Source of the DNA: Escherichia coli
Lineage (GTDB): Bacteria > Pseudomonadota > Gammaproteobacteria > Enterobacterales > Enterobacteriaceae
Assembly (NCBI RefSeq): GCF_003334405.1
Contig: NZ_QOWM01000001.1
Direction: 5' to 3' (one strand)
DNA length: 64,000 nucleotides
The notes beneath the pieces were generated by a model. The model was not told where the DNA came from. It was given only the letters and a program-made list of their open reading frames with translations, and made no database searches. The position numbers were made by a program, and so were the translations under genes. Shown here piece after piece: positions 51,831 to 54,738 of the stretch. Numbering within the stretch: the stretch's first letter is position 1; the number at the start of each line of letters is the position of its first letter.

Positions 51831-54110
51831 ATGGATGACCAGTTAAAACAAAGTGCACTTGATTTCCATGAATTTCCAGTTCCAGGGAAAATCCAGGTTT
51901 CTCCAACCAAGCCTCTGGCAACACAGCGCGATCTGGCGCTGGCCTACTCACCAGGCGTTGCCGCACCTTGTCTTGAAATCGAAAAAGACCCGTTAAAAGC
52001 CTACAAATATACCGCCCGCGGTAACCTGGTGGCGGTGATCTCTAACGGTACGGCGGTGCTGGGGTTAGGCAACATTGGCGCGCTGGCAGGCAAACCGGTG
52101 ATGGAAGGCAAGGGCGTTCTGTTTAAGAAATTCGCCGGGATTGATGTATTTGACATTGAAGTTGACGAACTCGACCCGGACAAATTTATTGAAGTTGTCG
52201 CCGCGCTCGAACCAACCTTCGGCGGCATCAACCTCGAAGACATTAAAGCGCCAGAATGTTTCTATATTGAACAGAAACTGCGCGAGCGGATGAATATTCC
52301 GGTATTCCACGACGATCAGCACGGCACGGCAATTATCAGCACTGCCGCCATCCTCAACGGCTTGCGCGTGGTGGAGAAAAACATCTCCGACGTGCGGATG
52401 GTGGTTTCCGGCGCGGGTGCCGCAGCAATCGCCTGTATGAACCTGCTGGTAGCGCTGGGTCTGCAAAAACATAACATCGTGGTTTGCGATTCAAAAGGCG
52501 TTATCTATCAGGGCCGTGAGCCAAACATGGCGGAAACCAAAGCCGCATATGCGGTGGTGGATGACGGCAAACGTACCCTCGATGATGTGATTGAAGGCGC
52601 GGATATTTTCCTGGGCTGTTCCGGCCCGAAAGTGCTGACCCAGGAAATGGTGAAGAAAATGGCTCGTGCGCCAATGATCCTGGCGCTGGCGAACCCGGAA
52701 CCGGAAATTCTGCCGCCGCTGGCGAAAGAAGTGCGTCCGGATGCCATCATTTGCACCGGTCGTTCTGACTATCCGAACCAGGTGAACAACGTCCTGTGCT
52801 TCCCGTTCATCTTCCGTGGCGCGCTGGACGTTGGCGCAACCGCCATCAACGAAGAGATGAAACTGGCGGCGGTACGTGCGATTGCAGAACTCGCCCATGC
52901 GGAACAGAGCGAAGTGGTGGCTTCAGCGTATGGCGATCAGGATCTGAGCTTTGGTCCGGAATACATCATTCCAAAACCGTTTGATCCGCGCTTGATCGTT
53001 AAGATCGCTCCTGCGGTCGCTAAAGCCGCGATGGAGTCGGGCGTGGCGACTCGTCCGATTGCTGATTTCGACGTCTACATCGACAAGCTGACTGAGTTCG
53101 TTTACAAAACCAACCTGTTTATGAAGCCGATTTTCTCCCAGGCTCGCAAAGCGCCGAAGCGCGTTGTTCTGCCGGAAGGGGAAGAGGCGCGCGTTCTGCA
53201 TGCCACTCAGGAACTGGTAACGCTGGGACTGGCGAAACCGATCCTTATCGGTCGTCCGAACGTGATCGAAATGCGCATTCAGAAACTGGGCTTGCAGATC
53301 AAAGCGGGCGTTGATTTTGAGATCGTCAATAACGAATCCGATCCGCGCTTTAAAGAGTACTGGACCGAATACTTCCAGATCATGAAGCGTCGCGGCGTCA
53401 CTCAGGAACAGGCGCAGCGGGCGCTGATCAGTAACCCGACAGTGATCGGCGCGATCATGGTTCAGCGTGGGGAAGCCGATGCAATGATTTGCGGTACGGT
53501 GGGTGATTATCATGAACATTTTAGCGTGGTGAAAAATGTCTTTGGTTATCGCGATGGCGTTCACACCGCAGGTGCCATGAACGCGCTGCTGCTGCCGAGT
53601 GGTAACACCTTTATTGCCGATACATATGTTAATGATGAACCGGATGCAGAAGAGCTGGCGGAGATCACCTTGATGGCGGCAGAAACTGTCCGTCGTTTTG
53701 GTATTGAGCCGCGCGTTGCTTTGTTGTCGCACTCCAACTTTGGTTCTTCTGACTGCCCGTCGTCGAGCAAAATGCGTCAGGCGCTGGAACTGGTCAGGGA
53801 ACGTGCACCAGAACTGATGATTGATGGTGAAATGCACGGCGATGCAGCGCTGGTGGAAGCGATTCGCAACGACCGTATGCCGGACAGCTCTTTGAAAGGT
53901 TCCGCCAATATTCTGGTGATGCCGAACATGGAAGCTGCCCGCATTAGTTACAACTTACTGCGTGTTTCCAGCTCGGAAGGTGTGACTGTCGGCCCGGTGC
54001 TGATGGGTGTGGCGAAACCGGTTCACGTGTTAACGCCGATCGCATCGGTGCGTCGTATCGTCAACATGGTGGCGCTGGCCGTGGTAGAAGCGCAAACCCA
54101 ACCGCTGTAA
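51831..54110 (+). CDS. maeB: NADP-dependent malic enzyme MaeB (malic enzyme fused to a PTA-like domain)
   Basis: 759 aa; N-terminal malic-enzyme domain and C-terminal phosphotransacetylase-like domain. Confidence 0.95.
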
Positions 54111-54402
54111 TTTTTTTTAACTCTCACGCTTACCCTGAATATTCAGGGTAAGCAGTTTAGCTGCAATATATTAGTAAAGCTTATTACTGAGTTTGCGAAT
54201 AATAAAAAAAAGCAGTCTATATAATATCTCGATATTATTTTATTTATATTCATGCGTTGCATATGAAAGTTTATGCACCACAGCGAATATCTCTCCATTC
54301 TTAGTGATCTACCTCACCTTTTAAACGCGCTTGCCGAATTTTGTTATTTACTCTGACGAAAAATTGTCACGATACACGAAAGTTTTTCACAGGCGGCGAC
54401 TC

Positions 54403-54738
54403 ATGGATAAAGAACGCATCATTCAGGAATTTGTGCCCGGCAAACAGGTCACACTGGCGCATCTCATCGCGCATCCCGGTGAGGAACTGGCGAAGAAAAT
54501 CGGCGTTCCGGATGCGGGCGCAATTGGCATTATGACGCTAACTCCCGGCGAAACGGCGATGATCGCCGGTGATTTAGCGCTGAAAGCCGCTGATGTGCAT
54601 ATCGGTTTTCTCGACCGATTCAGCGGTGCATTGGTGATTTATGGCTCGGTGGGCGCAGTAGAAGAAGCGTTATCACAAACCGTCAGCGGTTTAGGTCGCT
54701 TATTAAATTATACGCTTTGTGAAATGACCAAAAGTTAA
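54403..54738 (+). CDS. eutS: Ethanolamine microcompartment shell protein EutS (BMC domain)
   Basis: 111 aa from the ATG at 54403 ([14 protein letters not shown]); BMC-domain protein. Confidence 0.85.

Follow-up and report, generated by a model that had tools for sequence, protein, structure and literature searches.

The window, a stretch of 64,000 nucleotides of Escherichia coli DNA analyzed as a whole, contains maeB (b2463), encoding the NADP-dependent malic enzyme, and the eut operon, which are adjacent and co-oriented. In the list of open reading frames (ORFs), the maeB coding sequence occupies positions 51831-54110 of the + strand and ends with a TAA stop codon at 54108-54110, corresponding to the annotated positions 2576098-2578377 on the - strand of MG1655. 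The first gene of the eut operon, eutS (b2462), is placed by the MG1655 annotation and the ORF list at 54403-54738 (+ strand), with its ATG at 54403. Alignment of 54090-54420 revealed 100% identity to the reverse strand of E. coli K-12 MG1655, such that a window position x equals 2630208 minus the MG1655 (NC_000913.3) coordinate. Three maeB transcription start sites (TSSs) have been published on the MG1655 reverse strand at 2578531, 2578498, and 2578443 (Yan et al., 2018, Supplementary Data 1), equivalent to 51677, 51710, and 51765 on the + strand of the window, and the transcripts that end at the hairpin described below originate from these three sites.

The region between the two genes harbors a perfect palindrome. 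The original prediction had reported a 24-bp inverted repeat at 54129-54152, about 20 bp past the maeB stop codon and about 250 bp ahead of eutS. We found this 24-mer (CTTACCCTGAATATTCAGGGTAAG) at exactly that position, beginning 18 nt past the stop codon, and an inverted-repeat search together with folding extended the perfect repeat slightly, to 26 bp at 54128-54153 (GCTTACCCTGAATATTCAGGGTAAGC), beginning 17 nt past the stop codon and ending 250 nt ahead of the eutS ATG. The 17-nt spacer from stop to stem (54111-54127 on the + strand, as delimited in E. coli strain alignments) includes a run of eight T residues (T8, 54111-54118), and such a run lies on the upstream side of the palindrome only, as had been described.

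The palindrome exceeds the chance level. No second perfect palindrome longer than 14 bp occurs in the 64-kb window, the longest palindrome in 200 shuffles of the window measured 22 bp and thus always fell short of the observed 26 bp, and the arithmetic expectation for such a palindrome is approximately 0.001 per window. The original prediction had also suggested searching the genome for other copies, and this search returned a single locus both in the window and in E. coli genomes. Within the window the palindrome is single copy when up to three mismatches are allowed, and a 34-nt palindrome query matched 5,410 of the 5,426 complete E. coli genomes by short-query BLAST, with more than one mismatch in only 11 of them; the two matches per genome are the two strands of one palindrome, hence a single copy, and neither search yielded further copies. 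A permissive Rfam search of 53900-54600 gave chance-level matches only, with no family for the palindrome, and our literature search found no paper on the palindrome sequence itself.

Folding of the + strand RNA gave a hairpin with an 11-bp stem (5' arm at 54128-54138, 3' arm at 54143-54153; 6 G-C among the 11 pairs) and a 4-nt AUAU loop (54139-54142), with a free energy of -18 kcal/mol and a z-score of -6.7 relative to shuffles; counting a 12th pair found in other strains (see below), the stem has 11-12 bp and -18 to -20 kcal/mol. When the final 170 nt of the mature transcript were folded, this hairpin was the only robust element of the centroid structure, and no competing pairing was seen. 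Being a perfect palindrome in K-12, the element folds equally well on either strand. Past the stem on the + strand comes the K-12 tail AGUUUAGC, which has 3 U in its first 8 nt, below the criterion of at least 5 U in 8, and upstream of the stem there is no A-tract but a run of T. Read on the - strand, the stem runs into GUGAGAGUUAAAAAAAA, an A-run and not a U-tract. Scanned with a simple promoter and terminator search, the K-12 sequence gave no call, the hairpin being missed because its tail is AGUUUAGC, and the earlier view that the palindrome is not a textbook terminator for maeB is borne out in this respect.

Published transcript ends place the 3' terminus of maeB at this hairpin. SMRT-Cappable-seq, by which full-length primary transcripts of MG1655 were sequenced (Yan et al., 2018), yielded three transcription termination sites (TTSs) for transcripts containing b2463 only. 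In M9 medium, the TTS lies at MG1655 2576050 (window 54158), with 11 reads at the TTS, 0 passing, and 12 ending within 50 bp downstream (Yan et al., 2018). In rich medium, it lies at 2576049 (window 54159) for both TSSs reported, with 37 reads at the TTS, 3 passing, and 2 ending within 50 bp downstream for the first TSS, and 21, 4, and 7 such reads, respectively, for the second (Yan et al., 2018). Thus, the mapped ends fall in the tail AGUUUA (54154-54159, + strand), at the end of GUUU and 5-6 nt past the last stem pair, and the share of reads passing the TTS is 0-11% (Yan et al., 2018). The original prediction had made its case depend on finding transcript ends or protein binding at the palindrome, and transcript ends are indeed found there. 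All three TTSs carry the label 'novelTTS', meaning that they are missing from the RegulonDB terminator list (Yan et al., 2018). Since these rows are in the published data, the feature is already public as a transcript end: the maeB 3' end is known, and the hairpin belongs to a familiar type of element rather than being a new regulatory site. The curated Term-seq table of Adams et al. (2021, Supplementary file 1) has no maeB 3' end, which may reflect low expression only. The TERMITe and RepRanger supplements gave no match, and a literature text search for maeB with 'terminator' or 'bicyclomycin' returned nothing relevant.

We compared the hairpin and its flanks within E. coli. Among ten E. coli strains aligned in all, the 26-bp core differs in one. 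Most other E. coli have a palindrome of 28 bp, in which C54127-G54154 adds a 12th pair, because K-12 has A and not G at 54154. In the environmental E. coli 23S01245-7 (locus L092), the position equivalent to 54153 is changed from C to T, turning the outer stem pair G54128-C54153 into G·U on the + strand, that is, the maeB strand, and at the equivalent of 54159 the tail reads GGTTTGGC; this allele is rare, the hairpin being invariant otherwise. The flanks vary more. The T8 run at 54111-54118 is the K-12-type allele, other E. coli having TTCTTTTTT or TTCATTCTT in its place, and because the upstream T-run is polymorphic within E. coli it is unlikely to be functional and is probably irrelevant. 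Downstream of the stem, the tail AGTTTAGC of K-12-type strains is found in 1,333 genomes, GGTTTAGC in at least 1,777, and GGTTTTCC (the EcPF15 type) in at least 400; as these three counts fall short of all genomes, further tail variants must exist. Tails of other E. coli are also given as GGUUUAGC and GGUUUUCC. With the GGTTTTCC tail of E. coli EcPF15, the terminator scan calls the hairpin, and does so for the + strand alone.

We compared 80 loci around the maeB 3' end taken from Enterobacteriaceae. In this set the hairpin was found in only three Escherichia lineages other than K-12, one of them with an unchanged 28-bp palindrome. E. whittamii carries A>G at 54145, a 5-nt non-palindromic loop, and the tail AUUUUUAUAU (the E. 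whittamii-type tail is also given as ATTTTTAT), while Escherichia sp. MOD1-EC7003 (MOD1) carries C>T at 54134, A>G at 54138, A>G at 54145, and the tail GGUUUUAUUG. With their native tails, both hairpins are terminator-like in the scan, again for the + strand alone. When genomes labelled E. coli were searched for the flanks of these variants, the MOD1-type flank had only 86% matches and the E. whittamii flank had none; a metagenome scan for the A>G hairpin variant after a TGTAA stop gave 3 matches, which are unrelated and arose by chance.

The four stem substitutions (54145 A>G in E. whittamii and MOD1, 54134 C>T and 54138 A>G in MOD1, and 54153 C>T in the environmental E. coli strain) are all transitions that produce a G·U pair on the + strand and an A·C mismatch on the - strand. 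Pairing on the + strand is kept as G·U in every stem substitution except at the terminal pair, and 98.6% of the pair cells in a six-sequence alignment are paired on the + strand. The MOD1 sequence folds with -16.3 kcal/mol on the + strand versus -7.5 on the - strand. Base pairing on the transcribed strand is thus maintained in the relatives represented by the six-sequence alignment and the ten E. coli strains, and neither set contains compensatory double changes. A wobble pair in the maeB-sense RNA against a mismatch on the opposite strand argues against both a symmetric DNA operator and an antisense terminator, and it shows that the DNA dyad is not the thing maintained. Owing to the few independent events (3-4) and the lack of compensatory changes, this strand test is suggestive and not conclusive.

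Outside Escherichia, the hairpin sequence is absent from the Enterobacteriaceae loci compared. Instead, maeB is followed by unrelated GC-rich hairpins with T-runs in Citrobacter, the Klebsiella oxytoca group, Yokenella, Pseudocitrobacter, and Salmonella. These hairpins start 14-20 nt past the maeB stop codon in Citrobacter, the Klebsiella oxytoca group, Yokenella, and Pseudocitrobacter, and by reading of the sequence about 16 nt past it in Salmonella, compared with 17 nt in Escherichia. In an all-lengths scan, a hairpin with at least 5 T in the 8 nt downstream was present in 30 of 79 loci. A hairpin of -10 kcal/mol or below occurs in 78 of the 79 loci, a count that has no shuffled control and is not counted as evidence, so that the evidence is limited to the 30 loci with T-runs and to the shared offset. 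Unrelated hairpins at the same offset across genera mark this position as a conserved terminator slot in which the hairpin sequence has been turned over, and in evolutionary terms the Escherichia hairpin occupies the slot of the maeB intrinsic terminator.

Other loci in the set have a different 3' flank of maeB. In Enterobacter, Leclercia, Lelliottia, Pluralibacter, and relatives, a simple terminator is replaced there by repeated palindromic units, both of the CCCTCTCCC..GGGAGAGGG type and of a REP-like type exemplified by GCCGGATAAGCGCAGCGCCATCCGGC, located at about positions 3600-3720 of loci L035, L041, L044, L047, L056, L058, L061, L063-L067, and L079-L084. From such repeated units in other genera, the slot after maeB seems to attract hairpin elements of different origins. 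In Salmonella enterica subsp. diarizonae (L059) and Intestinirhabdus (L010), eutS lies 2.1-2.5 kb downstream of maeB, indicating that extra DNA was inserted between the two genes, and the conserved block upstream of eutS (see below) has moved together with eutS at these loci. The subsp. arizonae locus (L075) has no eutS within the 3-kb downstream flank.

Downstream of the tail, Escherichia alone has an AT-rich spacer (54160-54305, + strand; 20-33% GC), as seen in the composition profile and by comparison with Citrobacter and Klebsiella. It contains two small ORFs, at 54143-54298 (- strand) and at 54193-54324 (+ strand). The spacer is followed by a conserved eutS upstream control block at 54306-54402 (+ strand; TTAGTGATCTACCTCACCTTTTAAA ... 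CTTGCCGAATTTTGTTATTTACTCTGAC.AAAAATTGTCACGAT), covering about 100 nt upstream of the eutS ATG. Alignments showed no change in this block among 6 E. coli and conservation over 7 genera, the block being kept in Citrobacter, Klebsiella, Yokenella, Pseudocitrobacter, Salmonella, and Intestinirhabdus; it probably represents the region of the eut promoter and the EutR operator. In the genera with T-run hairpins, the terminator runs nearly straight into the block matching E. coli 54306-54402, and for this reason eutS starts only 154-161 nt past the maeB stop codon in Citrobacter and Klebsiella versus 292 nt in Escherichia. The block begins about 150 nt downstream of the Escherichia hairpin and is separate from it.

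Transcription downstream of the hairpin is sensitive to the Rho inhibitor bicyclomycin. A Rho termination region has been reported at window 54348 (MG1655 2575860, - strand), with a Rho score of 5.5 and p = 1.5e-13 (Adams et al., 2021, Supplementary file 2). In the 800 nt on either side, untreated cells gave 161 reads upstream and 21 downstream, and bicyclomycin-treated cells 195 upstream and 140 downstream (Adams et al., 2021). From these counts, the downstream/upstream ratio rises from 0.13 to 0.72 with bicyclomycin, a figure for 800-nt windows in which the start of the extra reads is not located. Because the score derives from 800-nt windows and low counts, its position is approximate and holds at the level of the region; the published coordinate itself falls within the conserved eut block. 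The composition profile revealed a patch with more C than G at 54260-54348 (+ strand; GC skew about -0.4) that is rut-like, and the strongest C-over-G excess of the spacer, at 54260-54340 with the same skew, lies directly upstream of 54348. The bicyclomycin-induced reads in eutS and eutP need not stem from maeB read-through, as promoters within the AT-rich spacer or the eut promoter itself could give rise to them. The sole binding datum that we found for the AT-rich spacer is an RpoS-holoenzyme gSELEX peak (PMC5493296).

Taken together, these results lead us to conclude, with a probability of roughly 0.85, that the palindrome forms the hairpin closing the monocistronic maeB mRNA at its 3' end, and that this hairpin would act as RNA on the sense strand and, with Rho, isolate eut from maeB transcription; that this is the best overall explanation of the locus seems to us probable. 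The U-rich tails of several lineages would make intrinsic termination the natural reading there, while the decayed U-tract of K-12 and the Rho region of Adams et al. (2021) make Rho termination, with the hairpin fixing and protecting the 3' end, the likeliest mechanism in that strain. Specifically, we infer for K-12 a division between intrinsic and Rho termination, a rut site, and a trimming step. A large share of the polymerases would pass the hairpin owing to the decayed U-tract, and the AT-rich spacer would then become untranslated RNA open to Rho loading. Rho would load on its C-over-G sequence and terminate ahead of eutS, and 3'-to-5' exonucleases would trim the maeB RNA back to the protective hairpin to give the sharp 3' end 5-6 nt past the stem, so that hairpin and Rho together would shield the eut block from maeB transcription. 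To this particular sequence of much read-through, Rho termination in the spacer, and exonuclease trimming we give about even odds.

The chief competitor to this mechanism leaves the hairpin in place as an RNA element and holds that in K-12 it is a self-sufficient intrinsic terminator, weak or factor-assisted, releasing most maeB transcripts at 54158/54159 without Rho; the Rho signal would then reflect a small read-through fraction or unrelated spacer transcripts, with Rho only as a back-up. The mapped ends at the close of GUUU and the 0-11% of reads passing fit an efficient terminator equally well, relatives carry U-rich tails on the same hairpin, and other genera have canonical terminators at the same spot. 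Against it stand the K-12 tail, which with only 3 U in 8 fails the scan, and the rise of the bicyclomycin ratio from 0.13 to 0.72, which would fall into the Rho-dependent class under the >30% threshold used by Dar and Sorek. We regard such self-sufficiency as possible, though we would not bet on it. Much further from the evidence lies a terminator or 3' stabilizer for antisense transcription running from the eut side toward maeB; an antisense terminator was among the options of the original prediction. The K-12 palindrome does fold equally well on both strands, but the - strand stem leads into the A-run of GUGAGAGUUAAAAAAAA where a U-tract would be needed, the varying pairs are lost there as A·C mismatches in the natural variants, the scan made no - strand call in any lineage, and the published ends are on the maeB strand; we set this proposal aside as extremely unlikely.

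The other proposal for the palindrome, a DNA operator for a dimeric regulator of maeB or eut, draws on its perfect dyad of 26-28 bp with a self-complementary center, its lack of variation in almost every one of some 5,400 E. coli genomes, and its position upstream of the eut operon. However, a stem made entirely of Watson-Crick pairs is automatically a DNA palindrome, to which a self-complementary 4-nt loop is added by chance in 1 of 16 cases, and the sister Escherichia lineages alter one half-site alone, at up to 3 of 12 positions, and the center as well, breaking the DNA symmetry while keeping the RNA pairing in the maeB sense. The element is moreover absent from genera that share the conserved eut control block and the maeB-eutS arrangement and that have an unrelated terminator hairpin in its place, the eut block itself lies some 150 nt further downstream, no second copy exists in the window or in E. 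coli genomes, and the palindrome sequence did not surface in the literature search. An operator is therefore very unlikely, even if the perfection of the palindrome in E. coli proper means that it may have a second, DNA-level role. One might also see in the palindrome a copy, or what is left of one, of some repeated palindromic element, REP/BIME-like or a transposon end, that has no function itself; the repeated elements in the maeB 3' flank of Enterobacter, Leclercia, and related genera and the resemblance of the Escherichia spacer to an insertion relative to Citrobacter would speak for this. Yet it is single copy and has no Rfam match, whereas true REP-type elements of the window match naRNA4, transcript ends map to the hairpin, and the substitutions preserve pairing, all of which render a functionless remnant highly implausible. 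More elaborate versions, in which the K-12-type decayed terminator is a conditional gate that couples acetate-induced maeB to basal eut expression, with Rho loading on the 250-nt untranslated spacer deciding the read-through, or in which the dyad additionally binds an Escherichia-specific protein, strike us as improbable.

The maeB 3'-end hairpin sets where the maeB transcription unit ends, at window 54158/54159 (MG1655 2576049/50) and explains how the adjacent and co-oriented maeB and eut can be expressed independently; in agreement with independent expression, MaeB was not induced by ethanolamine and vitamin B12 in proteomics. The original prediction had offered an insulator between maeB and eut among its options, and this stands in the ordinary sense that maeB transcripts stop at the hairpin. 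Overall its reading is supported in part, the explanation favored by the evidence being one that it had played down. The locus offers a natural example of a terminator slot kept despite hairpin turnover, in which decay of the U-tract is apparently offset by Rho, and it might serve as a test case for models separating intrinsic from Rho-dependent 3' ends. It also cautions that a perfect palindrome past a stop codon should be read first as RNA. Beyond annotation its significance is slight, as this is an ordinary element in the best-studied bacterium.

How does the element compare with known systems? With the operators of dimeric regulators it shares a perfect 26-28 bp dyad and an AT-rich center, but unlike them it has asymmetric half-sites in relatives, no regulon of similar sites, and a location outside the eut block. 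The TGAAT/ATTCA core of the palindrome presumably recalls ARG-box and Cra half-sites, though with the wrong spacing. Like REP/BIME elements, it is an extragenic palindrome at a gene 3' end, able to stabilize the upstream mRNA; unlike them, it is single copy, lacks the REP consensus, and has no match to Rfam naRNA4 (RF02564), which we take to be REP/BIME-derived. In the window, matches to naRNA4 above the gathering score are located at 37151-37227 (both strands) and 61939-62020.

The resemblance to intrinsic terminators is closer: a stable sense-strand stem-loop lies shortly past the stop codon, the RNA 3' end falls a few nt past the stem, canonical examples occupy the orthologous positions, and some Escherichia have a U-rich tail on the same hairpin. 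The K-12 element departs from them in its U-tract, which is cut to UUU after AG, in its AU-richer stem, in having no upstream A-tract, and in the bicyclomycin sensitivity of transcription downstream of the hairpin. As an intrinsic terminator it fails the U-tract criterion, and its independence of Rho is doubtful. The K-12 lineage seems to have moved from intrinsic termination to termination assisted by Rho. Rho-dependent transcripts of E. coli are known to end precisely past stable stem-loops without U-tracts or upstream A-tracts, which protect the RNA from PNPase and RNase II and are followed by sequence with more C than G (Dar and Sorek, 2018, PMC6061677). The maeB hairpin differs from this class in that trimming is a step we infer, and in that its relatives show it to descend from, or double as, an intrinsic terminator. 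Like members of the class, it is a stable stem-loop lacking both a U-rich tail and an upstream A-tract, it has a precise steady-state 3' end, C exceeds G downstream, and read-through depends on Rho inhibition at the level of the region. In the features compared, the K-12 hairpin fits the class described by Dar and Sorek.
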